DNA from: Vicinamibacterales bacterium
GTDB lineage: Bacteria; Acidobacteriota; Vicinamibacteria; Vicinamibacterales; UBA8438
Reading direction: 5' to 3'
DNA length: 64,000 nucleotides
Assembly (NCBI GenBank): GCA_965215895.1
Contig: CBDCEY010000005.1
Location: 160,792-224,791, forward strand
Shown here one piece after another: positions 4,670 to 43,836 of this stretch. The notes beneath the pieces were generated by a model that saw only the letters and a program-made list of their open reading frames with translations, searched no databases and was not told where the DNA came from. Made by a program: the position numbers and the translations under genes. The number at the start of each line of letters is the position of its first letter. Position 1 is the first letter of the stretch.

Positions 4670-4822
4670 TCAGATTCCTCGGGGCGATAGCGGGTGGTGA
4701 CGGGTGGAGGCGGTGACACGGTGTTCTTTGAAGTGAAGTACAGGGCGGCCTGTCTCAGTATAACAAACGCCCGCTCTTTTTGCGCCCTCCATCGAGGAGG
4801 AGCCGCCGCGCGTCCGGCCGGT

Positions 4823-10356: not shown

Positions 10357-10546
10357 GACCTCACCTGCCGTGGCGAAAGCCCGGCGGTCTCACCGGGGAG
10401 TCCCCCTCTGCATCGTACCATGCCGTGACGGATCCGGCACGCGTCAGCCGGCGGGAGGGGTGCACGACAAGAAAGTTGGGGATTTTCCGTTGGGGGTATT
10501 GAGCGAGCACTGATCGACCGATTCCTCGGGTAGGAGGACTCCGACC

Positions 10547-10774: not shown

Positions 10775-10890
10775 CCGCGTTTGCGGCTGAAATCGATGCG
10801 CTCATCGGACCGCGGCGGTCCGCCGCGCAGGACTTCGAGGCCCTCGAGCAGGCCCTCCGCCGCCAAGCCCTCGGCCTCGCCGCTCAGGCG

Positions 10891-12090: not shown

Positions 12091-12110
12091 CAGTCATCTC
12101 ACGAATCTGA

Positions 12111-14612
<2,502 letters not shown>

Positions 14613-21699: not shown

Positions 21700-21986
21700 C
21701 CCCGGAGCCCACCTCCACATGACCAGACCTTCCTCACAGGCCCCGCTGTCCCACTACTCCCCCAACTGCGACCCCACGACAGCACGAACGGCTCCCCCTC
21801 GCCCCTCCGCCACCGACCACACCCAACTACTGCCCCGGCCACCCAGCCCCCAAGCCCACGACAGCACCCCGACGCCCCTCCGGGATCTTCATCTGCCAAG
21901 TCCCCCCAAAACCGTCCGACTGCCCCCGAACACTACGCACCACAAATCACTGCCAAGCCCTTTTCACCCCCCGTCACCCCAGCCCG
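21700..21986. other. Strongly strand-asymmetric C-rich, G-poor non-coding tract at the island's left edge
   Basis: In one hand-counted 60-nt line (21781-21840), G = 10 and C is about 33. The minus strand carries many G3-G6 runs. No credible ORF. Confidence 0.6.
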
Positions 21987-23021
21987 TCACCCCCCGCGCC
22001 CAAACCCCTCCAACGCCAATCGATACAAACACCCCACACCTTGTGTGTAGTCCTCCGGCGCTGCAAACACTCTCGGCGTCGGATACACCACCTGCACATC
22101 CCGCAAGAAACCGCACGCCAGTCCCACCGCCAACGACTGCATCTTGCTCCCGGTTGGCACCACAACCAGCTTCTCCCGCTGCCCGTGAACACCGTACACC
22201 TTCAAGAGCAACTCAAGAGTCTCCCGATAGTCCAAAGTACTCACGCATAACTCATCTCTCGCAGGTAACGACTCCACCCGATTGAGCTCGCGGATCGCCG
22301 CAGGCCGCCACTTGTTCTCATCACTCGGAGGATTTCCATGCACAACCGTAAAGTACGCCGCCTGCATCTCAGAACAAACCGCGGCCAGCTGTCTCGTGTT
22401 CCACGATGGAAATACAATAACCCGCATCGGTTGACCCTGCATCGCAACACTCGACAGTTCCGGCACAATCGTCAAGCCAAACACGCCCCCCGACACAAAC
22501 ATCGTGAGGCCCAATACATCTCCTTCCTCCGCTAGCCTCAGATCAACTTCGTCCGCCCTCGGCCGGTACAGCGCTGCGCTACAGTACAACACCTCCGAAC
22601 GCGCGACGTGTCCACCCCTCACCAGAGCGGCCACGAGCTGCACGATCAGAATTCTCGACATACCTGACAAATCACAATGCAGATAGCACCCACTCGGTAC
22701 CCGCGCCAAAATCCGCTCCGCAGCCCCGGCCGGATCCTCCCGATCAAAGGCCACCCATTCCAGGCTCGCTCCCGCCTGCGCGCAAAGGCTGCCAACCTCC
22801 GCATTTTGGTTTACCACAAGTGTCGGCAGGTACTCAATGCACAGTACCCGAAACCCCCGGCAGCCCGCAACTACCGATCGTCGCAAAGCCTCTGTGGATC
22901 GCTCTTCAAACCCGGCGCACGTCAACAACACATCACCCGCACCGATTTCCGCCTGCTCCACAACCTCTAGTTCCGGATGCACGAGCCGCGCAAGCCATTC
23001 ATCAACCCGATACACCCTCAT
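21987..23021 (-). CDS. Hypothetical protein, third gene of the methyltransferase/kinase-NTPase operon
   Basis: 344-aa ORF in lower-GC DNA. In the reconstructed locus its ATG lies 3 nt after the upstream gene's stop. It has two beta-alpha-beta-like halves (VLLTCAGFEERS...YLHCDLSGMSRILIVQL, and MRVIVFPSW...KLVVVPTGSKMQSLAVG). I cannot recognise a family. Confidence 0.7.
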   Translation of the reverse strand: MRVYRVDEWLARLVHPELEVVEQAEIGAGDVLLTCAGFEERSTEALRRSVVAGCRGFRVLCIEYLPTLVVNQNAEVGSLCAQAGASLEWVAFDREDPAGAAERILARVPSGCYLHCDLSGMSRILIVQLVAALVRGGHVARSEVLYCSAALYRPRADEVDLRLAEEGDVLGLTMFVSGGVFGLTIVPELSSVAMQGQPMRVIVFPSWNTRQLAAVCSEMQAAYFTVVHGNPPSDENKWRPAAIRELNRVESLPARDELCVSTLDYRETLELLLKVYGVHGQREKLVVVPTGSKMQSLAVGLACGFLRDVQVVYPTPRVFAAPEDYTQGVGCLYRLALEGFGRGG

Positions 23022-23039
23022 GTTCTACTCCCCCGCTAA

Positions 23040-24530
23040 CAGCCTGTGGCAAAAGTCGATAGATCGGAGTCGACCTGAGTCGACGGAGTGGCGTAGACTT
23101 GGCGGCATGGCAATGGGCAAGAAGCCGGCGGCGCGACAGCCGTCGCCGATGTGGGTGACCACAGCGGACCTTCCGACGAGCGCGGGACATCCCTTTTTCG
23201 AACGGCTGAACCGGGTTCTGGAGGAGGCCGGATTCGATGCCTTTGTGGAGGGGTTGTGCGCGGTGTTCTACGCGTCGCGGCTGGGCCGCCCGAGTCTGCG
23301 TCCTGGGCGGTATTTCCGGCTGCTGTTCATCGGCTACTTCGAGGGTCTGTCGTCGGAGCGGGGGATTGCGTGGCGGGTCGCGGATTCTCTGAGCCTGCGG
23401 GCTTTCCTGGACCTGGACGTGACCGAGGCGCCGCCGAACCACTCGACGCTGTCGCGCACGCGGCGTCTGATCGACGTGGAAACGCACGTGGCGGTTTTCA
23501 CGTGGGTGCTGGAACGGTTGGCGGGAGCGGGTCTGGTGCAGGGGAAGACGGTCGGCGTCGATGCGACGACGCTGGAAGCGAACGCGGCGATGCGGAGCAT
23601 CGAGCGGCGGGATACCGGGGAATCGTACGAGGCGTTCGTGCGTCAGCTGGCGAAGGCATCGGGGATTGAGACGCCGACGCGAGCGGAGTTGGCGCGGTTT
23701 GACCGGTCCCGGAAGGACAGGAAGACGTCGAACAAGGAGTGGCAGTCTCCGCAGGACCCGGACGCGAAGATCGCAAAGATGAAGGACGGTCGGACGCACT
23801 TGGCCCACAAGGCGGAGCACGGGATCGACCTGGAGACGGGCGCCATCCTCTCGGTGACGGTGCAGGAGGCGTCGGAGGGCGATTCGGCGACGCTGCCGGC
23901 GACGCTGACGATGGCGGCTGAGCAGGTCGAGGCGGTGCAGCCGGCCGGTGCGGAGGTCGAAGAGGTGGTCGCCGACAAGGGGTACCACAGCGACGCGACG
24001 CTGGTGGCTCTCGACGAGATTGGGGTTCGCAGTTACGTCTCGGAGCCGGAGCGGGGTCGGCGCTGTTGGCAGGACAAGAAGACGGGAGAGACGCCGGTGG
24101 AGAAGCGTGCTGCGCAGAAGGCATTATATGGGAACCGTCGGCGTATTCGCGGCGACCGAGGTCGTCGTCTTCAACGCCGCCGCGGGGAGCTGGTGGAGCG
24201 GCCTTTCGCGCACCAGTACGAGACCGGGGGGCTGCGGCGGGTGTGGGTGCGCGGCCACGAGAATGTGCGCAAGCGGGTGCTCATCCAGGCGGCCGGTTGC
24301 AACCTCGGACTGCTGCTGCGCCGGCTGACCGGCGTCGGCACGCCCCGGAGCCTGCAGGGGCGGGCTCTTTCGGCCATTTGCGGACTGATCGGTCGCCTGA
24401 CCGCGCTCTGGGGGCGTCTGACGGCCTCTTGGGACTTCCAATGGACGCCGGCGGGGCTGGTCGGCTCAATCGCTCATCGCCAAGCTGCCTGAACAGGCCG
24501 GCTCAGCGAACAGCCTTCTTCCACGGGCTG
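23040..24530 (+). mobile_element. IS5/IS1182-type insertion sequence, copy A (1491 bp)
   Basis: Inverted repeats are CAGCCTGTGGCAAAAG (left) and CAGCCCGTGGAAGAAG (reverse complement of the right end), matching at 13 of 16 positions. The 4-bp target duplication CTAA occurs at 23036-23039 and 24531-24534. Confidence 0.9.
23107..24492 (+). CDS. IS5/IS1182-family DDE transposase (copy A)
   Basis: 461 aa from MAMGKKP. HPFFERLNRVLEEAGFDAFVE...GRPSLRPGRYFRLLFIGYFEGLSSERGIAWRVADSLSLRAFL...PNHSTLSRTRRLI (InsH-type N-terminal region) plus a C-terminal DDE region. Confidence 0.9.
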   Translation: MAMGKKPAARQPSPMWVTTADLPTSAGHPFFERLNRVLEEAGFDAFVEGLCAVFYASRLGRPSLRPGRYFRLLFIGYFEGLSSERGIAWRVADSLSLRAFLDLDVTEAPPNHSTLSRTRRLIDVETHVAVFTWVLERLAGAGLVQGKTVGVDATTLEANAAMRSIERRDTGESYEAFVRQLAKASGIETPTRAELARFDRSRKDRKTSNKEWQSPQDPDAKIAKMKDGRTHLAHKAEHGIDLETGAILSVTVQEASEGDSATLPATLTMAAEQVEAVQPAGAEVEEVVADKGYHSDATLVALDEIGVRSYVSEPERGRRCWQDKKTGETPVEKRAAQKALYGNRRRIRGDRGRRLQRRRGELVERPFAHQYETGGLRRVWVRGHENVRKRVLIQAAGCNLGLLLRRLTGVGTPRSLQGRALSAICGLIGRLTALWGRLTASWDFQWTPAGLVGSIAHRQAA

Positions 24531-25033
24531 CTAAACCTCCCAACCCAAGGGCCAGCTGTCCCGAACCCCTGCCTCCCCCGGGCTCTCCATCTGCCTCTTC
24601 TCCCGCCACCAAGCTCCTAAGCCGCTTCCTGCTCTTGAAACCCTTCGGGTCCACGAGCAAGCGTTCAAAATCCTCTACGCTCAGCTCCAAAGAGTCCCGC
24701 CGACTGAATGTAAGGTTGAAAAAGGGGATTAAGAACCGCCTCAAATAGAGTCTCGGGACGACGTTCCCCCTTCGACTCTTTCCCCGGACATCTTCGATAA
24801 ACACCGAATACCGCAATAGGTCCTCGTAAACCTCCTTCGCCTTACCCTCCAGATGCGGGTCCTCGTACGGCTCAATTCGGGATGCCTGGTGTGGCGGACA
24901 CGTGCTCTCGTTCTTCGAATCCCTAAACCGCAGATATGACGCGGCCACGCTACCGAAGGCCTCCACGACCTCTACCAACGGTTGTCCAGTCGGCACCTTC
25001 CTCAGGTTTCTCAAGAAGTTGCCGGCCTCACCC

Positions 25034-26371
25034 TCATGCATCCCCTTATTTTTCTTTGTTTCTAACATCAAATTACACCGAAGACCCCTCGATACACCCG
25101 CTGTTCCAGGAGCATCTCTCCGAACGTCTCCATCAACGGACGAATCCGGTCATCGGGCCAATTGGGAAGATGGTGATACAGCATCAACCCCTGCCGAAAC
25201 AACGAATGCGTCCGCCGCTTCACGGTGTTCGCCTTCAACCAGCGGTCATAGCCGATGCGCTCGCCCGCTGCACCCAGCAGCGACAGCATCGCGATCGCCA
25301 ATGCACTGATCAGCAACAGCCGGTCCCGCCGGTCCGGGCGCGAAACGTGCATCGACGACAGGCCCATCCCGAAGCGCATGTCCTTGATGTCCCGAAAGCC
25401 CGCTTCAATCCCCCAGCGCTTGCCGTAGTACCGAATCAACACCGGCGTCGGCACGGTCGCTTCGCTGGCCACCAAGCACCACGGTTCGTCCATCTTCCGA
25501 TCGTGTACACACACGACCACGCCCACCGGCAGCTCGTGAGCATCGGTCACCCGAGCGCCCACCAACCGCCGCGCACGCCCCCCAGCGCCGACCCACGCTG
25601 CGGCCGGTCGCCGCTCGCCCCGCGCATTCGTCACGTAGATGTCTCCGCGCAACCGAATCACGTATTCAAAGGTCAGTTCCTCCGTCAGTGCGTAGAACAG
25701 CTTGCAATCCGCAAAGCCCCGATCCGCCACGACCGTGACCTTCACCCCCGCCGGCAGTACCTCCCGCAAGCGGCACAGCACTTCGTACTCGTAGCGGCGC
25801 TGGTTGCCCTTCAGGGTCGACGACGCCACGGTCTTCCACAGCAGGGGCGTCGCGCGCCCGTGGCCTGTCAACATCGACAGCACAATAGTGTCCTGCCCGT
25901 CCGCGGCAAAGCTCGTCCAATCCAGCGCGACGATTACTTCCTTGCGAGCACCAACAATGTACGGCGTCCAATAGGCGAAGAAAGTCCCGACATCAACCCC
26001 TCGATTGCTCAGGAGCCGATCCACCTGTTTCACACCATGCTTGGTCAACGTGCCCATGGCCTGGGCCAAGCCACGCCCCACCGCATGGATCGCCAGCGAC
26101 GCACTCGCCAGCACGCCCAAGGTGGCATTGGCCAACGACAGCACCCGTTTGGCATGCAAATCGCCCTCGTACAAGGTGGTTACGAAGTTCAGAAGATCGT
26201 GTCTCTGGAGCAGTCGGTTGCGAGATGTTGGCGGCTTCTGATGTAAGCGCATGGGTCAACATACTAACCCAGGCGCGCGACATTGTGCAAAGTCCATCCC
26301 GTCGGAGATGTTTGTTCCACCGAACGGTTTCGTCTTATTGATTCACGTGATAAAATGAGGGGATCTCTGAG
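25034..26371 (-). mobile_element. IS4-family insertion sequence (about 1338 bp)
   Basis: The 10-bp target duplication GGCCTCACCC occurs at 25024-25033 and 26372-26381. Imperfect terminal inverted repeats are TCATGCATCCCCTTATTTTT and TCAGAGATCCCCTCATTTTA (about 16 of 20 match). Confidence 0.85.
25068..26252 (-). CDS. IS4-family DDE transposase
   Basis: 394 aa: ALDWTSF ... VVADRGFAD ... YGKRWGIEAGFRDIK (YREK-type C-terminal signature). Confidence 0.9.
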   Translation of the reverse strand: MRLHQKPPTSRNRLLQRHDLLNFVTTLYEGDLHAKRVLSLANATLGVLASASLAIHAVGRGLAQAMGTLTKHGVKQVDRLLSNRGVDVGTFFAYWTPYIVGARKEVIVALDWTSFAADGQDTIVLSMLTGHGRATPLLWKTVASSTLKGNQRRYEYEVLCRLREVLPAGVKVTVVADRGFADCKLFYALTEELTFEYVIRLRGDIYVTNARGERRPAAAWVGAGGRARRLVGARVTDAHELPVGVVVCVHDRKMDEPWCLVASEATVPTPVLIRYYGKRWGIEAGFRDIKDMRFGMGLSSMHVSRPDRRDRLLLISALAIAMLSLLGAAGERIGYDRWLKANTVKRRTHSLFRQGLMLYHHLPNWPDDRIRPLMETFGEMLLEQRVYRGVFGVI

Positions 26372-26625
26372 GGCCTCACCCCCTATCGCCTTGTTCTGGA
26401 TATCGGCCGCAACGCCCGGCACCGCACCGCCCCCTATCAAGCTGTCCACACCACCAGCCGCCGCTACCATCTTACCAACCAATTCAATTAAGAAGTGGAC
26501 ATCACCACTGCACAGCTCCGCAAGCGCACCGCGCCCCCAGATCCGCGGATGTTTGCCCTCGCGCAGGGCTCTCGCCATCTCGTTGTGTGTCAGCTCACTC
26601 GGCACGTCCCCAACAAGAGCCTCAA

Positions 26626-28116
26626 CAGCCTGTGGCAAAAGTCGATAGATCGGAGTCGACCTGAGTCGACGGAGTGGCGTAGACTTGGCGGCATGGCAAT
26701 GGGCAAGAAGCCGGCGGCGCGACAGCCGTCGCCGATGTGGGTGACCACAGCGGACCTTCCGACGAGCGCGGGACATCCCTTTTTCGAACGGCTGAACCGG
26801 GTTCTGGAGGAGGCCGGATTCGATGCCTTTGTGGAGGGGTTGTGCGCGGTGTTCTACGCGTCGCGGCTGGGCCGCCCGAGTCTGCGTCCTGGGCGGTATT
26901 TCCGGCTGCTGTTCATCGGCTACTTCGAGGGTCTGTCGTCGGAGCGGGGGATTGCGTGGCGGGTCGCGGATTCTCTGAGCCTGCGGGCTTTCCTGGACCT
27001 GGACGTGACCGAGGCGCCGCCGAACCACTCGACGCTGTCGCGCACGCGGCGTCTGATCGACGTGGAAACGCACGTGGCGGTGTTCACGTGGGTGCTGGAA
27101 CGGTTGGCGGGAGCGGGTCTGGTGCAGGGGAAGACGGTCGGCGTCGATGCGACGACGCTGGAAGCGAACGCGGCGATGCGGAGCATCGAGCGGCGGGATA
27201 CCGGGGAATCGTACGAGGCGTTCGTGCGTCAGCTGGCGAAGGCATCGGGGATTGAGACGCCGACGCGAGCGGAGTTGGCGCGGTTTGACCGGTCCCGGAA
27301 GGACAGGAAGACGTCGAACAAGGAGTGGCAGTCTCCGCAGGACCCGGACGCGAAGATCGCAAAGATGAAGGACGGTCGGACGCACTTGGCCCACAAGGCG
27401 GAGCACGGGATCGACCTGGAGACGGGCGCCATCCTCTCGGTGACGGTGCAGGAGGCGTCGGAGGGCGATTCGGCGACGCTGCCGGCGACGCTGACGATGG
27501 CGGCTGAGCAGGTCGAGGCGGTGCAGCCGGCCGGTGCGGAGGTCGAAGAGGTGGTCGCCGACAAGGGGTACCACAGCGACGCGACGCTGGTGGCTCTCGA
27601 CGAGATTGGGGTTCGCAGTTACGTCTCGGAGCCGGAGCGGGGTCGGCGCTGTTGGCAGGACAAGAAGACGGGAGAGACGCCGGCGGAGAAGCGTGCTGCG
27701 CAGAAGGCACTATATGGGAACCGTCGGCGTATTCGCGGCGACCGAGGTCGTCGTCTTCAACGCCGCCGCGGGGAGCTCGTGGAGCGGCCTTTCGCGCACC
27801 AGTACGAGACCGGGGGGCTGCGGCGGGTGTGGGTGCGCGGCCACGAGAATGTGCGCAAGCGGGTGCTCATCCAGGCGGCCGGTTGCAACCTCGGACTGCT
27901 GCTGCGCCGGCTGACCGGCGTCGGCACGCCCCGGAGCCTGCAGGGGCGGGCTCTTTCGGCCATTTGCGGACTGATCGGTCGCCTGACCGCGCTCTGGGGG
28001 CGTCTGACGGCCTCTTGGGACTTCCAATGGACGCCGGCGGGGCTGGTCGGCTCAATCGCTCATCGCCAAGCTGCCTGAACAGGCCGGCTCAGCGAACAGC
28101 CTTCTTCCACGGGCTG
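26626..28116 (+). mobile_element. IS5/IS1182-type insertion sequence, copy B (1491 bp)
   Basis: Same ends as copy A. The 4-bp target duplication TCAA occurs at 26622-26625 and 28117-28120. I saw 4 nucleotide differences from copy A. Confidence 0.9.
26693..28078 (+). CDS. IS5/IS1182-family DDE transposase (copy B)
   Basis: 461 aa. Identical to copy A except for one substitution I noticed (PVEKR to PAEKR). Confidence 0.9.
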   Translation: MAMGKKPAARQPSPMWVTTADLPTSAGHPFFERLNRVLEEAGFDAFVEGLCAVFYASRLGRPSLRPGRYFRLLFIGYFEGLSSERGIAWRVADSLSLRAFLDLDVTEAPPNHSTLSRTRRLIDVETHVAVFTWVLERLAGAGLVQGKTVGVDATTLEANAAMRSIERRDTGESYEAFVRQLAKASGIETPTRAELARFDRSRKDRKTSNKEWQSPQDPDAKIAKMKDGRTHLAHKAEHGIDLETGAILSVTVQEASEGDSATLPATLTMAAEQVEAVQPAGAEVEEVVADKGYHSDATLVALDEIGVRSYVSEPERGRRCWQDKKTGETPAEKRAAQKALYGNRRRIRGDRGRRLQRRRGELVERPFAHQYETGGLRRVWVRGHENVRKRVLIQAAGCNLGLLLRRLTGVGTPRSLQGRALSAICGLIGRLTALWGRLTASWDFQWTPAGLVGSIAHRQAA

Positions 28117-28363
28117 TCAAGGGTCGACACCGGATAACCCTCCGTATATTCAAATCGCCGCCGAAACACATCATCCACGAACCGCAGCTTGTCTTCGTTC
28201 TCCGCGTTTATAAAGTCGATACCGAGAGAGCCTCTTGCGAAAAGCGTGTTCGGCCGAGTTTTTGCCTGAGGCCGCGGGGCGAGCGAGGGTCAGCGGACGG
28301 GACGCAGCGTTCGCAGGATGACAGTGACCGCCACTGTGGCCGGGGAGCCGGAGCCGCGGGGGT

Positions 28364-28759
28364 TCATGGAGCCTGCCTGCCTGTGATGAGGGCAAGCACA
28401 CGCGAAGAGATGCGGCGCATTTCCTCCACGAGCCGTTCCAGTTCACGGTTGTTCTCGATCCACTCCCGGTAAAGGCCGAGTTCGTCTTCGGTGAGCTTCA
28501 AGCCGACGGTTTTTCCGCGGGCCTTCCGCGTCCAGTAGTGGTAGGGGCCGTGGCGGGCGTCCGGGTCGTGATGGCAGCGGCAGGTGGGCGACCCACAGGC
28601 TATACGGCGGGTCTGGACGCTGCCCTGGCCGATGAACCCGACCGCTTGTAGTTTCGCCTTGAGCGCATCGTACTGTTCCTCGTACCGATGCATCGCTTCG
28701 TCGTGGGCCATCGATTGGCTGCTTGACATCCTCTTTGCTCGTAAATGTACAGTAGGCAA
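28364..28759 (-). CDS. Small Cys-rich IS-associated protein
   Basis: 131 aa, with CGSPTCRCHHDPDARHGPYHYWTRKARGKTVGLKL followed by a coiled-coil tail. It resembles small proteins often found beside transposases (possibly DUF6788, from memory and unverified). Confidence 0.55.
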   Translation of the reverse strand: MPTVHLRAKRMSSSQSMAHDEAMHRYEEQYDALKAKLQAVGFIGQGSVQTRRIACGSPTCRCHHDPDARHGPYHYWTRKARGKTVGLKLTEDELGLYREWIENNRELERLVEEMRRISSRVLALITGRQAP

Positions 28760-28775
28760 CAGGAGTGGTCAAGAA

Positions 28776-29915
28776 ATGAATCACCTGCGCGTCGCCTTCG
28801 CCCCCTACTGGCAGTCGATCCAGCATGCCCTGTTTCCGCAGTTGGAGCGCGTGTTGGGTCCGCTGACCGAGAAACAACAGCAGTTGGTGCAGACCCTGGA
28901 GGTCATCCGTATCGAGCAGATGATTCCCCGGCGCTTCCGAGTGCCGGGGCGTCCGCCCAAGGACCGTGCGGCGATGGCGCGGGCCTTGGTGGCCAAGGCG
29001 GTCTACGACATGCCGACGACGCGCGTGCTGCTGGACCGATTGGACACCGACGTGGTGCTGCGGCGGATCTGCGGCTGGGAGCGAAGGAGTGAGGTGCCGA
29101 GCGAGTCGGTCTTCTCGCGCGCCTTCGCCGAGTTCTCGGACACGCAGTTGCCCCAGCGCGTGCACGAAGCGCTGATCTGGAACACCCACCGCGACCGGCT
29201 GGTGGGCCACCTCTCTCGCGACTCGACGGCCATCGAGGCCCGCGAGAAGCCGGCCGCGAAGGAGAAGGCGCCTCCGCCGCCCAAGCGCAAACGGGGACGG
29301 CTGAAGAAGGGTGAGGAACGACCGAAGGTCCTCAAGCGCCTCGACCGGCAGGCGACCATGAGCCTGCCGGCGATGCTCGACGACCTGCCGACCGCCTGTG
29401 ATGTCGGCATGAAGAAGGACAGCAAGGGCTACAAGTCCACCTGGGTCGGCTACAAGCTGCACATCGACGTGGCCGACGGCCAGATTCCGATCAGTTGCCT
29501 GCTGACGTCCGCCTCGCTGCACGACAGCCAAGCCGCCATTCCGCTGGCGACGTTGTCGGCCGGGCGGACGACCAATCTGTATGACCTGATGGACGCCGCC
29601 TACGACGCGGAACCGATCCGGCAGCACAGCCGCTCACTCGGCCACGTCCCGTTGATTGACACCAACCCCCGCCGCGACAAGACGCTGGCGGAGGAACTGC
29701 GAACCGAAGCCCGGCGCCTGAAAAATATCGGCTTTCAGCTTGCCGAGCAGGTTCGCTACAACGAGCGTACGGCGGGTGAGCGCGTCAATGGCCGACTCAA
29801 GGACGAGTTTGGCGGTCGCCATGTCCGGGTCCGTGGCGCCTCGAAAGTGATGTGTCACTGCATGTTCGGCGTGCTCGCACTCATCGCCGACCAGCTCGTA
29901 CGCCTGGTGACATAA
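28776..29915 (+). CDS. IS4/IS5-superfamily (DDE_Tnp_1-like) transposase
   Basis: Start at ATG 28776, preceded by AGGAG. 379 aa: LSRDSTAIEA ... GYKLHIDVADGQIPISCLLTSASLHDSQ ... LMDAAYDA ... YNERTAGERVNGRLKDEFG. Confidence 0.85.
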   Translation: MNHLRVAFAPYWQSIQHALFPQLERVLGPLTEKQQQLVQTLEVIRIEQMIPRRFRVPGRPPKDRAAMARALVAKAVYDMPTTRVLLDRLDTDVVLRRICGWERRSEVPSESVFSRAFAEFSDTQLPQRVHEALIWNTHRDRLVGHLSRDSTAIEAREKPAAKEKAPPPPKRKRGRLKKGEERPKVLKRLDRQATMSLPAMLDDLPTACDVGMKKDSKGYKSTWVGYKLHIDVADGQIPISCLLTSASLHDSQAAIPLATLSAGRTTNLYDLMDAAYDAEPIRQHSRSLGHVPLIDTNPRRDKTLAEELRTEARRLKNIGFQLAEQVRYNERTAGERVNGRLKDEFGGRHVRVRGASKVMCHCMFGVLALIADQLVRLVT

Positions 29916-31806
29916 CCAGCGCACCGCCGGCAACGCCCCTCGGCGCCCGACCGGCGTCAGTCACCCACCGGTGTTCCGACGCTCGGTCGGCGACACGTCG
30001 AAACAGCCCTACTTCCACCTCTCGGCGTGCCGCCGGTCCTCCAGAGCCGGCATCCAGTCGGCGATCCAGGGCGAATGGGTGTTTACCAGGAGAATTGAGG
30101 ACTGCGCCAAGCCGCCAGCCCCAGGAGTTTCGCAAGCGGCTCGAGATTCACAAGTCTAAACTCCCGCCCCTCAACGTACGACTTTCCGTCAACATCGCTG
30201 CTCTCGTACGACGCCGGGCTCTCCGTGGCCAGCTTAAAAAAGCACGCAGCACTGCGTTGCATCAATAACCGGTTAATGTTTCGCTGCAAATCCCCGCTGA
30301 TTTTCGGCGTCGAGTAGTCGTCAAAGAAAAAGAATATCGGTCGCCCGGCGAGACACCGCAGCCCTCTTGATAACGTTGAACATACCGCCGGCAGGATACC
30401 CGGTCCAAAATAGCGTCCAAAACTCTGCTTTGGGTCCTCCACAAACCGCTGCTTCCTGGCGGCCCGTTCCCGCTCCCGATCCAACGCGCGCTGAATGACC
30501 GCAAACGTATCCGCGCTCGGCTGTTGCGGCTTCGCCAAGCCCAAAACCCTCCAGAGCTCCCGTGCGACCTTCGGCTCGTCGTTCCGCCGAGCCTCCGGGA
30601 AATGTCGCCCGGCCCACAGGTCCAAAGACTTCAACAATTCCCGAACCAACGTCGCGGTCACGAAGTGCAACGGCACGTCAATCGCCGCGCTGCGGGTCGG
30701 GCGCGTGTACCGCGGAAAGTTGTAATAGAGATCATCGCATCTATAGTAGATGCCGACGTACGCAACCGAATCCGGCGCATCATCTTCCGTATAAAACCGA
30801 TGCTCCAGGCTCAGGCTCCGGAATACAGTCGTCTTGCCGCAGCCTCTCGGCCCCGTCAGTACCAGGTTATTGGTGTCTTCAATAACCCGCAGACCGAGCA
30901 TCTTGTCCGAATACAGTTCCTTCAGGAGAGCGTGAGATTCTCCGATTTGTTCGCAACTTAGATAATCAAAGGGCGTTGTCAGTGTTCGCCGCGCCACGCC
31001 GGCGCTCTGGACCGCAAAGCTCTGTTCCGCCTTTCTCAATGACTCGAACAGCAAAGCCGGGTCCCGCGCTCGTTCGTCGTAGGCAGAATCCTGCTCAAAA
31101 AGCCCCTTCGCCAAGAAATCGTTATTGATAACGTCGTACATGTATCGATCTTCGGACCTACATGCCTGGTAGTCCACAGCTGCCAGTAAGTCGCGCAGCA
31201 TCACGCCAACCTGGTCGAAGTCGTCCACAAGCCCCGCGCTACTGGTTAACGGAGCCACACCAAAGTCGGTTATCCGAAATACATATGGAGACCCAGTCAA
31301 CGACATTGATCGATCTTCGACGAGCACGTTACCGGCGTGAAGGTCACCATGCTGGACGCCCATCTGCTGCAGCTCTCGCAGGAAGTCCAACATATCTCTG
31401 AAGAAATCCAATATAAAGAGGATGGTAACCGGCTCCTTCTTCTGGTACTCCCGCAAAGTCGAGCCTCGGACTAAGTCCGACAACAGGAACACACAGTCGC
31501 CCTCCTCGGTCGGCCAAGTGCCGGTGCTGTAGAACTTGACTACGCGGTTCGACGAAACCATGTTCGCCTTGAGGATCTCCTCCTTCCACGGTGGCGGACT
31601 ACGATCTGCACCTATAAGGTTGGAGACCGGAATTACCTTGCACGCAATCTCGCGCTGTAGCCCCTCGGACCTGGCAACGAATACGTGTCCGTTGCAGCCG
31701 GAAGCAACCCTGCGGACTACCGAGTATTCGATGTGGCCAGGTACTGGCCGGCCGATGAACTGCTCAACCGCGGGCAAGTGTCGTCTCATCGCGTTTCCCT
31801 TGCGCG

Positions 31807-33030
31807 TCAGATCGCCCGAGAGACCTCGGCGTTCCTTGCCCGCTTCGCCGGGCGGTGTCGAAACACGAGCACCGTTTCTCGTTTGGTGCCACGGAGGTCC
31901 CGGCGTGAGCGACGGATATCGGGGATGACGTCGCAGATAGTTCGCTCGAGTCGAAAGCCCGCGAGTTCCCTCGCCGTCGCGAATACGTTCGTGATGATGG
32001 AGGAACCGTCCAGGACGCGGCCGCCGCGGCTAGCTTCACCGACTACGAGGACGATGACACCGGAATCGGATACGTGCGGAGCAATGCGTACGAACGTACT
32101 ACTTAGCAGTTGGCGGAATCGCGCTTCTCGATTGCGCTTCGGAATGTCGCGCTGTGGAGGAAGCTGGCGCCCGAGGAACCAAAGGCGCAGGCGGTTATCT
32201 CGAACGTAGTCCAGTTCATTCATGTACGGCGGGCTAGTCACAACCGCGTGGACGGGAGCAGGCAGGCGCAATGCGCGGCTGTCTCCTTGGAGTATTTCGG
32301 AGGGCGCTTGGTGCAGTGCTGGGCGGCGATACGTGCGATGAATCTTAGCTTCCATCCGACTGAGCACGTCGCGCTCTTGATAGAGTTCAGGGAACTTCTC
32401 GCGATCAAAGAGCTTGTTTCTCAGATAGGGCACCAGATGACTACTAGGAAAGGACAGAAAGCCGGGTCGTTGGTGGTGCAGAATGCCGAGGAGGCAGGCG
32501 AGCAAAAGCCAATCTGCACGTGCAACTAGTTCATCCCGGAGGGCGAGGGCTCGGCGTAGGGTTTCGCGATGGAAAAAGTTGCGGACCCAATATGGTACTT
32601 TGCGCAGGTCTTGCATGGGGATTCGGCGTTGAGCGGCCTTCCAGGCCATGAGAAGGCGGTCGAGCGTCACTGCTTCGGATCTTGGTGCTCGCAGTTTTGC
32701 CCGGGTCAGCAACACCGCGTACGGGTTGATGTCGTTGGCGATTACTCTACGGCCCAAGAGTGAGGCCTCAAGTGGAATGACACCTGAGCCACAAAACGGA
32801 TCGAGCACTGTTTGGCCGGACTGGGTGAATTCACGGATGAGGTAGGCTGCGATGGTCGTTTTGATGCGCCCGATATAGGGAGCGATTTGGTGAAACGTAC
32901 AGTCGGTGGCCGTCGTGCAGGCTGGGGACCAAGGCAGGTGCTCACGCCGAGGCGGACGCACGGATTTGGCGTCCCCCGTGCGCTGCGCCGAATGCGCGGC
33001 TTCCGCGAGGCGGTCCACGTTACTAGCCAT
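31807..33030 (-). CDS. DNA methyltransferase (N6-adenine or N4-cytosine type)
   Basis: Motif I is VLDPFCGSGVIPLEA and motif IV is VVTSPPYMNELDY, about 190 aa downstream. I prefer the ATG at 33030 (MASNVDRL), which is preceded by GGGAGGA. The tracked ORF could extend to 33132. Confidence 0.85.
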   Translation of the reverse strand: MASNVDRLAEAAHSAQRTGDAKSVRPPRREHLPWSPACTTATDCTFHQIAPYIGRIKTTIAAYLIREFTQSGQTVLDPFCGSGVIPLEASLLGRRVIANDINPYAVLLTRAKLRAPRSEAVTLDRLLMAWKAAQRRIPMQDLRKVPYWVRNFFHRETLRRALALRDELVARADWLLLACLLGILHHQRPGFLSFPSSHLVPYLRNKLFDREKFPELYQERDVLSRMEAKIHRTYRRPALHQAPSEILQGDSRALRLPAPVHAVVTSPPYMNELDYVRDNRLRLWFLGRQLPPQRDIPKRNREARFRQLLSSTFVRIAPHVSDSGVIVLVVGEASRGGRVLDGSSIITNVFATARELAGFRLERTICDVIPDIRRSRRDLRGTKRETVLVFRHRPAKRARNAEVSRAI

Positions 33031-33135
33031 GGTCGCGCATTCCTCCCTCGCGTCCGACCGAGGTCTTCTGCAGAGTGCCGTGCGGTTCATGGTCGTCGCA
33101 GCTCGGAGTGAACCGGGAGGGGCGACCCTCACCAG

Positions 33136-34439
33136 TCACGGAGTCGCCCCCACGTCCGCGCGCCACGCGCCCAAAACCGCCACCAGGCGCTCGACCCGGC
33201 CCGGATAGGCCGCGGCCAGATCCTCCTGCTCCCCCAGGTCGTCGTCGAGGTTGAACAGCATCGGGGATCCCGGCGTCCCGTCGTGCCGGTCGATGACGAG
33301 CTTCCAGGGACCGTCGCGCACCGCCGCACCGTTCCAGAAGGTGCCGTCCGCCCCCCAGAAGAGCTGCCGCAGAGCCAGGGCCTCCTACCGGAGGAGGACC
33401 GGCGAGAGGTCGACCCCGTCGAGGGCCGAGACGAGCTGGTTCGACTCGGTGCCGGCGGGGATGCGGGCGGGCCAGACCGCGATGGACGGCAGGCGGTGAC
33501 CGCCCTCCCAGTCGGTCGCCTTGAGGCCGCGCAGCGGGCCGTTCGAGCCCCACTGGGCGGCGCCGTTGTCCGAGAAGAACCAGACCAGGGTCCGGTCGGC
33601 GATGCCGTGCGCCTCGAGCGCGTCGAGGACCTCGCCAACGCCCGCGTCCATCTCTCGCACCATGTCGCGATAGGCGCGCCGGCGGTCGGCGACCGACCCC
33701 CGCGGGTCGAACTCGCCGCCCACGGCCCGGTCGGCGGGGTCGTCAGGCCCCTGGAACGGATAGTGCGGGGCGTGGTGCGGCAGATAGAGGAAGAACGGCC
33801 GGTCGCGGTGCCGCTCGATGAAACGCAGCGCGTACTCGGTGACGAGGTGGGTGGCGTACCCCGCCTCGGTGCTCAGCTCGTCGTCGCGCCACCAGTCGGC
33901 GCGCCCCATCGTGTCGACGTGCGAGCGGTAGTCGATGTTGCCGCTGACGAAGCCGCGGAACTCGTCGAACCCGTGCCGCACCGGATTGAAACGGGCGCGG
34001 TAGCCGAGATGCCACTTGCCGAAGATGCCGGTGGCGTAGCCGCGCGCCCGCAGCGCCTCGGCCAGGGTCAGCTCTCCCGCCTCGATCCCGTCGTCGTGCG
34101 ACGAGCGGGCGGGATTGGCGAACAGCACCCCGGGAATGCCCGCCCGCTGCTGGTAGCGGCCGGTCATCAGGCCGGCCCGGGTCGGGCTGCAGACGTTGCC
34201 GCTCGAATGGAAGTCGAGGAACCGCATGCCGTCGCGGGCCATCCGGTCGAGCCGCGGCGTGTCGATCCACCCGTCGTAGGGGCCGATGTCGCCGTAGCCG
34301 AGGTCGTCGGCCATGATGACGACGATGTTGGGCGGCGCCCCGTCGCGGCCCCCGGTGCCTGGACCGCCGCCGGCGCCGGAGCCGCCGCAAACCCCGCGAG
34401 GCCGCCCAGTACCAGGAACCCGCACGTGCGCATGGTCAT
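33136..34439 (-). pseudogene. Arylsulfatase-family gene with a frameshift and an in-frame amber codon
   Basis: NIVVIMADDLGYGD and CSPTRAGLMTGR are sulfatase signatures. The signal peptide MTMRTCGFLVLGGLAGFAAAPAPAAVQAPG is in a different frame from the catalytic domain, and one extra G/C in the homopolymer near 34349-34353 would join them. A TAG at 33385-33387 is in frame with the conserved C-terminus (...VLLR*EALALRQLFWGADG...RDGPWKLVID). Confidence 0.75.
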
Positions 34440-34637
34440 CACAGCTCCCCCTCTGGTCTCGTCTCCGTGACGGCGTTCTCCGGCAACCGCGCCCCGGCGA
34501 GAATCCCAGGCATCCGGCATTGCCCTCGCAGCCATCGCAGGGCCGCGCCTGTCGTTTCAGACACATAGGCACCTGCACGGTCCACGACCGGGACATGGCA
34601 GGACGTCGGCCCCGAGCCCGCGGCATCGTGTCGGGCC

Positions 34638-36677
34638 TCACGGCAACCGGAACGCCACGAGCGACGGGACCGCGCCGCCCACCGTGACCGCGATGTACTG
34701 GCGCCCGTCGAGCATGTAGGTCATCGGCGTGCCGATGGCGCCGCCCGGCAGATCCACGGCTCCCCGCAGCTCGCCCGTCGCCTTGTCGTAGGCCACGAGC
34801 CGCGGGCCGTCGTCGGCGCCGCCGGCGGTGAGCGTGTAGATCAGCAGGGTCCGGGTCAGCAGCGGACCGTTCCGGCCGGCGTCGCCGCCCAGCGGGGGCA
34901 GATCGAGGTGGCGAAGCCGCGGGTGGTTGCGGAACCGGTCGCCGTTGCCGGTCGGCGTCATCCAGCGATGCTCGCCGGTGTGCATGTCGATGGCGGTCAT
35001 GCGCGAGTACGGCGGCTTCCACAGGGGCAGCCCGCCGGGCATCTGCGGGCGCCGCCGCAGGTTTCCCCCACCGAGGAACGCCGTGTTGCCCCGGCTGAGG
35101 AGATAGCGCAGGTTGGAGTCGTCGGCCGCCACGGGTTCCCGGAACCGCATGACCGAGTGCAGGTTGCGGGACGGCACGTAGAGCATGCCGGTCTCCGGGT
35201 CGACCCCTGCCCCGCCCCAGCTCGCACCGCCGCCGGCGCTGGGGCGGAAGACGGTGCCTCGCAGGGAGAGCGGCGTGTAGAGCGGCCCAAGGCGGAAACC
35301 CTCCACCGCCTCGATGGCCAACTCGCGGATCTCCGGGGTGAAGTCCACGAGGTCGTCGAGCGACGCCCCCTGATACTCGAAGGCGGCGGGCCGCGTGGGG
35401 AACGGCTGGGTCGGGGCCAGCAGCTCGCCCGCGAGGTCGGTGTCGGTGGCCACCGGCCGCTCCTCGATCGGCCATACCGGCTCGCCCGTCACCCGGTCGA
35501 AAACGTAGACGAAACCCTGCTTCGTGACCTGGGCGACGGCCTTCACGGGCCGCCCGTCGACCACGACGTCGATGAGGTTCGGGCCGGTGGGATTGTCGTA
35601 GTCCCAGACGCCGTGGTGCACCATCTGGAAGTGCCACACGCGCTGCCCGGTCTCGATGTCCACCGCCACCAGGCTCTCGGCGAACAGGTTGTCGCCCAGC
35701 CGCTGCCCGCCGTAGTAGTCGGACGTCGGCGTGCTCGTCGGCAGGTAGACGTAGCCCAGCTCGGGATCGGCGGCGATGTTGCCCCAGACGTTGGTGTTCC
35801 CCGAGTAGCGCCACGCCCCGTTCAGCCACGTGTCGGCCCCGTACGCGTCGGCGCTCTGGGGCACCATGTGGAAGTCCCAGCGGTGACGCCCGGTCTGCGC
35901 GTCATAGGCGCGCACGTAGCCCGGCGCGTTCTCCCTCCGGCTGAGATAGTCGTGGATCGAAGACCCCACGACGACCGTGTCGCCGACCACCAGGGGCGGA
36001 GACCGAGACGGCGGCGGCAGCCGGCTCGGATTCTCGCGCGCCCGCGGCAGCCCCGCTTCGAGGCTGACGCGGCCATTCTCGCCGAAGTCGGCGGCGGGCA
36101 GCCCCGTCGCCGCATCCACGGCCGTGAGCCACCCGTCGCCGGTGCCCCAGATGACGCGGGCCTGCCCGCCGGACTCCCAGTAGGCGACCCCGCGGTGGTT
36201 CCAGGGCGCGGGAAGGGGCGGGCTGCCCGCTTCGTACACGCGTGGGTTGTAGACCCACACCGTCTCCCCGGTGCGCGCGTCGATGGCCGCGGCCTGATAG
36301 ATCGGCGTGGCCAGATAGAGCCGGCCGCCGGCCATGACCGGGGTCGCCGACAGCCGCGCGATGCTCGGCCGGGTCACCCACCGGTCGGGATCGGCCGCCT
36401 CGAGCCGGTCGAACACCGTCCCCGCCGGCGCCAGCGCGACCCCCGACCCGTCCTCGACCGGCAGGTGCGCGTCGGCGCTGCCCCAGCGCCACGCCACCTC
36501 GAGGGTCTCGAAGTTGTCGGCGGTGATCTGGTCCAGCGGCGCGTACCGCGTGCCGTGGAGATCGCCGGCGTACGAGCGCCATTCCCAGTCGGCGCCCCCC
36601 GGCTGCGCCGCGGCCACGGCCGCGGACAGGCAGACGGACGCCACCAGCGCCCCGACGCGTTTCTCCATCGGCACCAA
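34638..36677 (-). CDS. PQQ-dependent dehydrogenase (quinoprotein beta-propeller), exported
   Basis: 679 aa. Signal peptide, then WRSYAGDLHGTRYAPLDQI ... repeated W-containing propeller motifs ... HHGVWDYD. Confidence 0.85.
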   Translation of the reverse strand: MVPMEKRVGALVASVCLSAAVAAAQPGGADWEWRSYAGDLHGTRYAPLDQITADNFETLEVAWRWGSADAHLPVEDGSGVALAPAGTVFDRLEAADPDRWVTRPSIARLSATPVMAGGRLYLATPIYQAAAIDARTGETVWVYNPRVYEAGSPPLPAPWNHRGVAYWESGGQARVIWGTGDGWLTAVDAATGLPAADFGENGRVSLEAGLPRARENPSRLPPPSRSPPLVVGDTVVVGSSIHDYLSRRENAPGYVRAYDAQTGRHRWDFHMVPQSADAYGADTWLNGAWRYSGNTNVWGNIAADPELGYVYLPTSTPTSDYYGGQRLGDNLFAESLVAVDIETGQRVWHFQMVHHGVWDYDNPTGPNLIDVVVDGRPVKAVAQVTKQGFVYVFDRVTGEPVWPIEERPVATDTDLAGELLAPTQPFPTRPAAFEYQGASLDDLVDFTPEIRELAIEAVEGFRLGPLYTPLSLRGTVFRPSAGGGASWGGAGVDPETGMLYVPSRNLHSVMRFREPVAADDSNLRYLLSRGNTAFLGGGNLRRRPQMPGGLPLWKPPYSRMTAIDMHTGEHRWMTPTGNGDRFRNHPRLRHLDLPPLGGDAGRNGPLLTRTLLIYTLTAGGADDGPRLVAYDKATGELRGAVDLPGGAIGTPMTYMLDGRQYIAVTVGGAVPSLVAFRLP

Positions 36678-42623: not shown

Positions 42624-42666
42624 AATCCTTGAAAATAAGCATTTGACAGACCGATTTTCAAGGATT
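42624..42666. promoter_or_regulatory. Perfect 13-bp inverted repeat (possible operator or hairpin) upstream of the AAA_14/DUF4143 gene
   Basis: AATCCTTGAAAAT (42624-42636), a 17-nt spacer, then ATTTTCAAGGATT (42654-42666). It sits in a locally AT-rich patch. Confidence 0.45.
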
Positions 42667-43836
42667 AGCGTTCTCCGAGTGTACATCGAACGGCCGGCCT
42701 GGACCCGCCGGATCCACGAGGCGTTCTCCGTGCATCCGGTCGTCGCGGTGACCGGACCGCGGCAATGCGGCAAGACGACGCTGGCCCGCGCTATCGCGAC
42801 CGACTCCACGCCGGCCGCCTGGTTCGATCTCGAGGCGGCGGTCGACCGCAGGCGGCTGGGCACGCCCGAGCTGACCCTGGAACGCCTGCGGGGGCTGGTG
42901 GTCATCGACGAGGTGCAGCGGTCGCCGCAGCTCTACGAGACCATCCGCGTGCTGGTCGACCGGACCGACAACCCGGCGCGGTTCCTGCTGCTCGGCAGCG
43001 CGAGCCCGGCCCTGGCCACCGGCGTGTCGGAATCGCTCGCGGGCCGGGTCGGGATGGTCGACATGGCTGGATTCGACCTGGAGGAGGTCGGCGCCGGCGC
43101 CTGGCGCGAGCTCTGGCTGCGCGGCGGCTTTCCCCGCTCCTACCTCGCGGCCGGGACGTCGCGCGCCGCCCTCTGGCGCCGGAACTTCGTGCGCACCTTC
43201 CTGGAACGCGACGTTCCCCAGCTCGGCATCACGATACCCTCGGAGGCGCTCCGCCGTTTCTGGCAGATGATCGCCCACTATCACGGCGCAGTCTGGAATC
43301 GGGCGGAGTTCGCACGCGCCCTCGGCGTGCGTGAGAGCACGGCTCGCCGGTATCTCGACATCCTGGCCGGCGCGTTCATGGTGCGGGTGCTGCCGCCGTG
43401 GTTCGAGAACGTCCGGAAACGCCAAGTGAAGTCGCCGAAGATCTACGTGCGCGATTCCGGTCTGCTCCACACCCTGCTCGGTGTCGCCGACGGGCCGCAG
43501 CTTGGCGGCCACCCCAAGATCGGCGCCTCGTTCGAGGGCTTCGTCGTCGAGCAGGTCCTGGCCGCGTTCGCCGTCGACGATGCCTGCTTCTGGGCGACGC
43601 ACGCCGGCGCCGAGCTCGACCTGCTCATCGTACGCGGCGGAAAACGGTACGGCTTCGAATGCAAGCTCGCCGACGCGCCGGGCACGACCCGATCGATGCA
43701 CGTCGCGATGACGGATCTCGGACTCCGTCATCTGTACGTCGTGTATCCGGGCACAGAGGCGTATGCCCTGGGCGACGCCATCTCCGCGTTGCCGGCCAGC
43801 GGGATTCCGGCGCTGGCACGGACGCTGGAGACGTGA
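42643..43836 (+). CDS. AAA-family ATPase (AAA_14 + DUF4143-type)
   Basis: VAVTGPRQCGKTTLA (Walker A), VVIDEVQRSP (Walker B) and a C-terminal DUF4143-like region. The true start may be the GTG at 42679 (VYIERPAW). Confidence 0.85.
   Translation: MTDRFSRISVLRVYIERPAWTRRIHEAFSVHPVVAVTGPRQCGKTTLARAIATDSTPAAWFDLEAAVDRRRLGTPELTLERLRGLVVIDEVQRSPQLYETIRVLVDRTDNPARFLLLGSASPALATGVSESLAGRVGMVDMAGFDLEEVGAGAWRELWLRGGFPRSYLAAGTSRAALWRRNFVRTFLERDVPQLGITIPSEALRRFWQMIAHYHGAVWNRAEFARALGVRESTARRYLDILAGAFMVRVLPPWFENVRKRQVKSPKIYVRDSGLLHTLLGVADGPQLGGHPKIGASFEGFVVEQVLAAFAVDDACFWATHAGAELDLLIVRGGKRYGFECKLADAPGTTRSMHVAMTDLGLRHLYVVYPGTEAYALGDAISALPASGIPALARTLET

Follow-up and report, generated by a model that had tools for sequence, protein, structure and literature searches.

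The decay of acquired or defence genes through insertion sequences (ISs) is a known kind of phenomenon, and the locus described here, a foreign, defence-like cassette decaying in this way, belongs to it. The locus lies in a stretch of 64,000 nucleotides from a Vicinamibacterales bacterium (GenBank assembly GCA_965215895.1, contig CBDCEY010000005.1, positions 160,792 to 224,791 of the forward strand), called the window below, on which all coordinates are counted. Within it, four of the five ISs lie inside one 2.5-kb gene, which encodes a Hanks-type kinase fused to an ORC/Cdc6-like ATPase and stands between the genes for a DNA methyltransferase and a tandem CARF/USP-like protein. As in other cases of IS-mediated decay, several IS families have entered one non-essential, compositionally foreign gene, each insertion has a clean target-site duplication (TSD), further elements are nested in the locus, and related metagenome-assembled genomes (MAGs) contain the same IS in clustered or nested form. 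Unlike in those cases, the intermediate stages are kept here in near-identical strains from different samples, which gives the order of events, and 5-6 transposition events stand against almost no point substitutions in ~49 kb.

Among described defence systems, Pgl/BREX type 2 (PglX, PglW, PglY, PglZ) shares with the cassette a DNA methyltransferase, a Hanks-type kinase and an ORC/Cdc6- or STAND-like ATPase. PglW has kinase modules and an inactive ORC/Cdc6-like domain (PMC12839542). The cassette differs in that its ATPase, whose Walker motifs are intact, forms one polypeptide with a single kinase, and in that its small methyltransferase of 407 aa resembles the Type II MTase models of PADLOC, not PglX; PglZ, BrxC, BrxL and the NERD nuclease are absent. 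No Pgl or Brx protein is among the PADLOC matches listed for the three cassette proteins (for the methyltransferase, the best 25 of 49), and with three genes and no PglZ the cassette falls outside BREX type 2/Pgl. The MADS system (mad1-mad8) also unites a methyltransferase and a protein kinase in one locus, but has eight genes where the cassette has three. Weak matches of mad6 to the kinase domain, mad2 to the methylase and mad8 to the P-loop concern generic catalytic cores only, and a score of 23 bits against NCBIfam MAD6 (NF047741, cutoff 460), together with the three conserved genes, places the cassette outside MADS. Another likeness is found in the PADLOC profile CARF6--CARF_STK_AAA, which describes a fusion of CARF, Ser/Thr kinase and AAA modules. 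The kinase-ATPase matches this profile over positions 330-669 (4e-25) and the 344-aa CARF/USP-like protein matches its C-terminus (positions 890-1178, 2.6e-6). Because both proteins match separate parts of one fused profile, the same modules exist fused elsewhere; in the cassette, unlike in the fusion, they are encoded by two genes and are paired with a methyltransferase (52/54 loci with both neighbours).

Four insertions in the kinase-ATPase gene

In silico removal of the four ISs, each with one copy of its TSD, leaves 2508 nt on the minus strand, which form an open reading frame (ORF) of 835 codons plus stop with no internal stop codon, from the ATG at 31789 to the stop at 23025-23027. A preliminary description of this DNA, made from the sequence alone, had proposed that exact repair would restore such an ORF; the excision bears this out, the product matches 835-aa homologues, and the four junction peptides read as given there. 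The four elements are likewise present where it had placed them, with the TSDs CTAA, TCAA and GAGA and the duplication of the IS4-type element, whose ends had to be adjusted. The exact repair recipe permits the ancestral protein to be expressed and assayed. For the repaired protein 612 homologues were found, mostly of 820-835 aa, and its alignment with intact 835-aa homologues is gap-free. Protein P0001 (835 aa) is 96% identical over 100% of the length and is encoded on metagenome contig L001, an IS-free relative with ~95% DNA identity to window 21950-35054. Each target that occurs twice in the window is present just once in L001, at all four insertion positions. Among the proteins clustered with P0001 are truncated products of the expected kind (661, 627, 492 and 390 aa), one of which, P0242, is the window's own kinase/ATPase fragment, fused to the end of the 1915-bp IS. 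Two other proteins, P0058 and P0048, were considered as further disrupted alleles, but both lie at contig ends and are uninformative.

The IS4-family element (25033-26371, 1339 bp, minus strand) encodes a transposase of 394 aa (25068-26252, minus strand), which belongs to this family by its score of 233 bits against NCBIfam IS4_2 (NF033591, cutoff 152) and its Pfam match to DDE_Tnp_1. Its inverted repeats match at 16/20 positions. While the preliminary description was right about its presence, the size of 1338 bp and the TSD GGCCTCACCC given there do not hold: the ends are fixed by a second IS4 copy in the sister allele L014, and the TSD is the 9-bp GGCCTCACC at 25024-25032 and 26372-26380. 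Direct target duplications of the IS4 family are typically ~9-12 bp long, and this element has made a 9-bp duplication at two separate insertions (GGCCTCACC and TCCTCGGGC).

Two further insertions are copies of a 1491-bp IS5/IS1182-like element on the plus strand. IS A occupies 23040-24530, with its transposase at 23107-24492 (plus strand) and the TSD CTAA at 23036-23039 and 24531-24534; IS B occupies 26626-28116, with TCAA at 26622-26625 and 28117-28120. The copies differ at four positions and their transposases by one amino acid. The transposase of copy A, on which the Pfam scoring was done, contains DUF772, DDE_Tnp_1_6 and DDE_Tnp_1, and its NCBIfam scores lie below the cutoffs (IS1182, 183 bits, cutoff 270; IS5_4, 102 bits, cutoff 140). 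The inverted repeats match at 14/20 positions. In species-representative genomes scanned with the end of the element, long-read MAGs of Vicinamibacterales contain at least 11 complete copies and one truncated copy at 98-99.5% identity, an association that points to a probable Vicinamibacterales (Acidobacteriota) chromosome as the host. The TSD is 4 bp long in 11 of the 12 complete copies examined, the exception being L006 with its mismatched flanks. Besides CTAA and TCAA in the window, the targets are CTAG (three times), CTAC (twice) and TTAA, ATAA, TCGA and TCAG (once each) in the MAGs. A short TSD with a TA-type core, inverted repeats and the presence of many copies are traits that the element shares with the IS5/IS1182 group.

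Of the four positions at which the copies differ, three fall within 95 bp (24098, 24124 and 24192 in IS A), and the IS A copy of the sister allele L015 has the B-type bases at all three. Either the window's IS A was altered by gene conversion, with a copy elsewhere in the genome as donor, or the assembly of L015 (4.7x) is noisy here. In a related Vicinamibacterales MAG (L011, 1606-4969) two copies of the 1491-bp element are found 392 bp apart, and in L008 (1907-6485) a copy is split by an insertion of ~3 kb; clustering and nesting of ISs are recurrent in the Vicinamibacterales lineage.

The fourth insertion is a 1915-bp element, also IS5/IS1182-like (28228-30142, plus strand), with the TSD GAGA at 28224-28227 and 30143-30146 and inverted repeats that match at 16/20 positions. 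It has a transposase ORF at 28584-29915 (plus strand, likely ATG at 28776), Pfam matches to DDE_Tnp_1, DUF772 and DUF6788, and NCBIfam scores below the cutoffs (IS1182, 94 bits, cutoff 270; IS5_4, 85 bits, cutoff 140). The DUF6788 match comes from a separate ORF of 131 aa (28364-28759, minus strand, Pfam E 2e-31), which lies antisense to the transposase.

The insertions divide the gene into five pieces on the minus strand, and native residues are kept up to 549, 584, 668 and 832 at the four sites. The first piece (30143..31789) contains native residues 1-549 with the Hanks-type kinase domain and both Walker motifs, and is a still-open frame in the window allele, as part of a 568-aa ORF (30083-31789, minus strand) with an IS-derived tail. 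It is followed by a piece for residues ~549-584 (28117..28227), which is 100% identical to L014 and L015, by one for residues ~584-668 (26372..26625), by one for residues ~665-832 (24531..25032), and by the final three codons and the stop (23025..23039). The piece for residues ~584-668 holds one copy of the IS4 TSD and the codon of a substitution, R665G.

In the repaired protein, Pfam Pkinase covers residues 22-185 (40.6 bits, cutoff 31.7), and the kinase residues K51, H147-G-D149, N154 and D175-F-G are invariant among 34 homologues. A fold search with the full-length model matches this domain to PknB (target TM-score 0.62-0.66), and by both domain score and catalytic motifs it is a Hanks-type kinase. 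The ORC-CDC6-like domain PF24389 spans residues 303-599 (E 1e-34, 120.6 bits, cutoff 27), and its Walker A (G313PRGCGKT) and Walker B (D490-D491) motifs, invariant in the same 34 homologues, are those of an ORC/Cdc6-like AAA+ protein. The C-terminal third is also strongly conserved in this set. The C-terminal domain, which is the site of three of the ISs, received no fold assignment in the search with the full-length model, which was dominated by kinases; secondary structure suggests a helical bundle with a winged-helix-like domain.

These positions bear on the idea, put forward in the preliminary description, of four independent knockouts, which does not survive. IS A lies at the very end of the kinase gene, three codons from its stop, on the side of the 344-aa gene and between the two; it spares 832 of 835 native residues and removes the last three, so that by its position it would not inactivate the kinase/ATPase protein on its own. 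In addition, the first 549 codons are still open. The accompanying statement that there is no other lesion needs a qualification. Between the repaired protein and P0001 there are 35 differing positions, just one of which, R665G, falls in a column that is at least 90% conserved. This position holds Arg in 94% of 34 homologues, and in none of them is it occupied by Gly. The codon (26382-26384) starts 2 nt upstream (5') of the IS4 TSD, and the change is common to all IS4-bearing alleles, while the IS-free L001 and L019 do not have it.

Nested alleles and the order of insertion

Exact look-up of the 344-aa protein gave sister alleles, which come from two other samples and occupy the same chromosomal locus; they were compared with the window by BLAST. 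The allele L015 (ERZ26694896, 4.7x) equals the window minus the 1915-bp IS and thus carries IS4, IS A and IS B, the last with no difference from the window copy. In L014 (ERZ25068966, 51x, on a 1.6-Mb contig) the kinase gene carries IS4 alone, and the sites of the other three elements are exactly empty. L013 also has IS4 alone in this gene, in an assembly of 13x with poor consensus that is garbled inside IS4 and has flanks unlike those of the window. Taken by element, IS4 is present in L013, L014 and L015, with an empty site in L001, and is common to every window-type allele that covers the site, L019 being L001-type there. IS A has empty sites in L013, L014 and L001. IS B has exact empty sites in L014 and L001, and in L013 the readable part of its site is a 17-nt junction with a single TTGA. 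The 1915-bp IS has exact empty sites in L013, L014, L015 and L001 and occurs in the window allele only.

The flanks of L014 and L015 are 99.9-100% identical to those of the window, and across window 1-23039, 30142-34886 and 39163-60140 the L014 contig shows ~3 mismatches and no IS polymorphism. The alleles are a nested series on one haplotype, from IS4 through IS4 with A and B to IS4 with A, B and the 1915-bp element. From this nesting in near-identical alleles the order of insertion therefore follows: IS4 was first, IS A and IS B came next, in either order, and the 1915-bp IS was last. A further IS4 copy sits in the methyltransferase gene of L014 at window 32169-32177 (TSD TCCTCGGGC); it lies 5.8 kb from the first and is itself split by a 1690-bp IS1380-family element. 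In this sister branch the methylase was struck after the kinase gene was already broken.

The comparison with sister genomes, which the preliminary description had proposed, has thus yielded four empty sites in L001, three in L014 and one in L015, and with them a stepwise order. It does not support the four hits as independent evidence of repeated selection against the kinase, as they form a nested series on one haplotype in a gene that was broken after the first insertion. This is a warning that several ISs in one gene need not equal several independent selective events. The claim that inactivation was by transposition and recent is upheld, both by the 99.9-100% identical flanks of the sister alleles that lack one or three ISs and by the ratio of nonsynonymous to synonymous substitution rates (dN/dS). 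Measured against L001, dN/dS of the kinase gene is 0.135 overall (0.123 upstream of residue 549, 0.157 downstream), compared to 0.184 for the uninterrupted methyltransferase. The insertions are recent because no drift has accumulated and there is no sign of relaxed selection. With 4-5 allelic states from different environmental samples and almost no point substitutions, the locus records cleanly how ISs accumulated over time in nature, and it shows the speed at which a foreign cassette can be dismantled.

The methylase was held to be tolerated. Its gene is intact in the window, but in the sister L014 it is interrupted by the second IS4 copy, so that the methylase is not spared. What survives of that reading is weaker, namely that in a single lineage an effector-like gene was lost before the methylase, as in a restriction-modification-like pair. 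As in the decay of restriction-modification systems, all window-type alleles that span the site have a broken effector-like gene, but only one derived allele has a broken methylase. Unlike in such systems, the cassette has no nuclease, and protection by the methylase against the kinase-ATPase is presumed. From this succession, in which the effector went first, one can derive a testable hypothesis on which component harms without the other.

An exact-pattern scan of the Joint Genome Institute (JGI) metagenomes for the empty IS4 site found none, and an IS-free allele of pure window type was not recovered. L019 (ERZ25068966 ctg475698_6x, 1-5400, 6x coverage) contains an intact cassette with no IS, whose sequence is a mosaic. 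It agrees 100% with the window type from a point before the methylase as far as ~nt 1650 of the kinase gene, and 100% with the L001 type from there to the end; the changeover falls close to where the 1915-bp IS and IS B are inserted in the window. Two explanations offer themselves, a genuine recombination event that repaired the gene and a chimera formed in assembly at low coverage. Window 22010-35776 is also found in L013 at ~100% identity, with flanks that differ on both sides (L013 1-2872 and 11012-13552); its left junction abuts 220 nt of internal sequence of the 1915-bp IS (window 28462-28681). A rearrangement, a second genomic context of the island or a misassembly are possible explanations.

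Causes of the clustering

The insertions are concentrated in a small part of the locus. Between the window and L014, the 3.8-kb methyltransferase-kinase stretch differs by five transposition events, and ~49 kb elsewhere in the window match L014 without any IS polymorphism; in all, 5-6 transposition events in <4 kb compare with one insertion and one inversion elsewhere in the compared sequence. The insertion is a 1214-bp element of the L015 strain (L103, 6929-8142) at window 51990-51998, with perfect 19-bp inverted repeats and the TSD ATGCGATTT, which is absent from the window and the L014 strain. Its 228-aa ORF has no match to a transposase family, and its site lies in a lower-GC stretch (~64% GC). 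The inversion concerns the fifth IS of the window, an ISKra4-family element (10457-12119, 1663 bp; transposase 10891-12090, plus strand; NCBIfam 285 bits, cutoff 205) flanked by CGGCGGGA. Its whole 1663 bp are inverted in the sister contig L106 (ERZ26167216, 17x), with collinear flanks.

The preliminary description had also raised the possibility that this AT-richer gene is simply a preferred target. Some support for this comes from TA-centred 4-mers of the type used by the 1491-bp IS, which are 3-5x denser in the kinase gene than in the rest of the window, so that the gene holds 12-17% of the TA-type sites in 4.3% of the non-IS window. However, AT-richness fails to explain IS4 because both of its targets, GGCCTCACC and TCCTCGGGC, are GC-rich.

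We consider it probable that there was one inactivation, followed by a build-up of ISs in a dead, TA-richer foreign island. IS4 would have inserted after residue 668, cutting off the conserved C-terminal part and breaking the gene, and the nearby R665G change may have contributed to the inactivation. The two IS5/IS1182-like copies would then have entered the same haplotype after residues 584 and 832, and the 1915-bp IS would have come last, after residue 549, while the sister lineage would have taken the second IS4 copy and the nested IS1380-family element in its methyltransferase. The series and the order are read directly from the alleles; as the cause of the clustering we infer the constraint lost with the first insertion, together with the TA-richer, lower-GC target and possibly local hopping, the last because the second IS4 copy lies so close to the first.

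Several points weigh against such a neutral build-up. Even with a 3-5x enrichment it is numerically short for 5-6 events in <4 kb of a ~7-Mb genome, and the same 5-6 events took place while the flanks acquired almost no point differences, so that a stronger local bias or selection must act. The GC-rich targets of IS4 do not fit a preference for TA-type sites. Furthermore, IS A and IS B may have entered in either order, L013 (13x) and L015 (4.7x) are low-coverage assemblies with local consensus errors, and the defence function of the cassette is a predicted one.

Selection could have driven the repeated insertions if the kinase-ATPase or its IS4-truncated product was costly or toxic and each later insertion shortened or silenced the product. 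The insertions in question are IS B and the 1915-bp IS, both upstream of IS4, and the methyltransferase IS4 of the sister strain with a polar effect. We regard this as unlikely. It is favoured by the 5'-ward shift of the later insertions of known order, from residue 668 to 584 to 549, but under uniform within-gene insertion this order is expected with a probability of ~0.5 by chance and is statistically uninformative. The extra insertion of the sister lineage lies upstream in the same operon, events are far denser here than in the ~49-kb flank, the loss of the effector-like gene preceded that of the methylase, which a toxin-antidote-like pair would predict, and the catalytic residues of kinase and ATPase are intact in the remaining 549-residue frame. 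Yet IS A, downstream of IS4 and three codons from the stop, cannot affect the kinase product, and the final allele still has the kinase and P-loop frame open. Parallel selection moreover predicts independent single-insertion alleles at different sites, and none were seen, and the toxicity of the product is assumed by this account.

A related proposal, which we place below plain selection and hold doubtful, takes the IS pile-up as a genetic record, made in nature, of the toxicity of a widespread defence system that is linked to methylation and so far uncharacterised. Equally doubtful is the mechanism that goes with it, in which C-terminal loss via IS4 would have deregulated the kinase-ATPase and successive upstream insertions, or in a sister strain a polar one in the methylase, would then have been positively selected. 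The same grade applies to the corollary that the methylase would be dispensable only once the effector is dead. If this reading were true, the locus would point to the effector, the antidote and the regulatory C-terminal domain of a new system.

A lower place still is given to a pure insertional hot spot, in which the DNA of the island attracts ISs whatever the state of its genes, through its lower GC content, its TA-rich 4-mers, a possible silencing or structure of foreign DNA, or hopping from a resident IS, and in which the first insertion would also be just targeting. The density of TA-type targets in the kinase gene speaks for it, as do the lower-GC site (64% GC) of the 1214-bp element, the tandem and nested clusters of the 1491-bp IS in L011 and L008 and the landing of the second IS4 copy 5.8 kb from the first. 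Against it, the GC-rich targets of IS4 count once more, and the enrichment factor is orders of magnitude too small at genome scale. In addition, an intact IS-free cassette persists in the 95% relative L001 and 52/54 evaluable metagenome loci keep both flanking genes adjacent, and for this reason the cassette DNA is not generally unstable.

That the ISs were collapsed, misplaced or chimerically joined in assembly and no four-IS molecule exists is very improbable: the source is a metagenome-assembled contig, L013 is garbled inside IS4 with flanks unlike the window, L019 is a 6x mosaic of two lineages and IS A has three clustered differences lacking in the L015 copy, but each IS has inverted repeats, a perfect TSD and a matching empty site. 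Moreover, L015, an independent assembly from another sample, has three of the four insertions at exactly the positions of the window, IS B base for base, IS4 recurs in three other assemblies, and a collapse is at odds with the sequence differences by which the two 1491-bp copies can be told apart. The 1915-bp insertion is seen in the window itself; the fusion protein that it creates, P0242, is on record from what is apparently the window's own source contig and is not independent support.

The three-gene cassette and its surroundings

The cassette consists, in this order, of the DNA methyltransferase, the Hanks-type kinase-ORC/Cdc6-like ATPase and the tandem CARF/USP-like protein. The same order, with reading frames that overlap or abut, is found in L001, L002 and L016-L018, which include Sorangium sp. 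So ce296. In a survey of JGI metagenomes that covered the best 80 loci of 396 relatives, with the evaluable loci as denominators, the methyltransferase lies directly upstream in 60/62 and the CARF-like gene directly downstream in 67/68, and both neighbours are in place in 52/54. Because its GC content is 57-60% in a genome of ~70%, a value shared by the flanks, the cassette was probably acquired horizontally. In a literature search no paper that describes or tests the cassette was found, the nearest being a BREX survey with general remarks on ORC/Cdc6-like domains; the decay of this locus thereby draws attention to a conserved three-gene cassette with hundreds of relatives that was not found named or tested in the literature.

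The methyltransferase gene (31807..33030, minus strand, ATG at 33030), the first of the cassette, is intact in the window and encodes 407 aa with Pfam matches to N6_N4_Mtase, UPF0020 and MethyltransfD12 and a PADLOC match to MTase_II (1.5e-25). Its alignment with the L001 orthologue is gap-free, but a point stop ends it 7 codons earlier, and this 407-aa form with the early end is also called in L013 and L019.

The third gene (21987..23021, minus strand) is likewise intact and encodes the 344-aa protein, which is tandem Rossmann-like (CARF/USP-like), retains 47/47 family-invariant columns and is probably a ligand sensor. It has no Pfam or NCBIfam family match, and the CARF6 profiles of PADLOC match it with 4.8e-8. 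Its AF2 model (pLDDT 88, pTM 0.90) has two tandem Rossmann-like domains, and the Foldseek matches are tandem USP proteins and the CARF proteins Cad1, Csm6, Can2 and Cam1, with probabilities mostly of 0.96-1.0. The TM values against the CARF proteins are just 0.2-0.3, and tandem USP proteins match equally well. No CRISPR type III gene or cyclase was seen in the gene lists of the contexts examined, and the precomputed Pfam lists of the neighbourhoods contain no Cas10/CD-NTase family, though no search aimed at cyclases was made. In L016 a gene with a PF00211 guanylate-cyclase domain is present on the opposite strand ~1.5 kb downstream of the cassette.

The contexts of the cassette are rich in mobile and defence genes, such as ArdC, an Eco57I-type gene and an M78/HTH gene in L017, Mom, RadC and AEP in L002, and HigB in L019. 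Domain content, tight gene order and genomic context suggest that the intact cassette is most likely a methylation-linked defence module. This reading is favoured because of the tight gene order, the fused PADLOC architecture and the mobile- and defence-rich contexts, and the order of decay, effector first and methylase later, fits it. By analogy with methylation-linked defence systems, host DNA would be marked as self by the methyltransferase, and the state of DNA or nucleoprotein would be sensed by the ORC/Cdc6-like ATPase together with its C-terminal domain. The response would be delivered by the kinase and regulated by the tandem CARF/USP-like protein, with a small molecule as its ligand.

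An upstream sulfatase gene of the alkaline-phosphatase superfamily at 33385-34629 was considered as a PglZ-like fourth component and rejected, as it has host-like GC content and is missing from other contexts. A gene for ThyX (Thy1, flavin-dependent thymidylate synthase) lies directly upstream of the methyltransferase in three of five hand-checked cassettes (L002, 5822-6757; L016, 3958-4881; L017, 3685-4668). In the survey ThyX is upstream in just 4/52 loci, and the window has no such gene in this place. Some cassettes may thus have ThyX as an additional, fourth member with a link to the modification of nucleotides or DNA. In L020 (3963-8065) a homologue of the kinase-ATPase with a CARF-like partner is found in a defence-island context, at a distance of ~2 kb from a PglW-like gene whose product of 1415 aa contains NERD, RNA_pol_A_CTD and two kinase domains.

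Elsewhere in the window, three further features are of a defence- or mobile-like kind. One, at 50970-52769 (minus strand), is a lower-GC stretch (62-65%) with ORFs that have no family or a weak ATPase_2 match. An AAA_14/DUF4143 ATPase is encoded at 42643-43836 (plus strand), and a Uma2-like putative restriction endonuclease at 45764-46876 (minus strand) adjoins an HTH gene.

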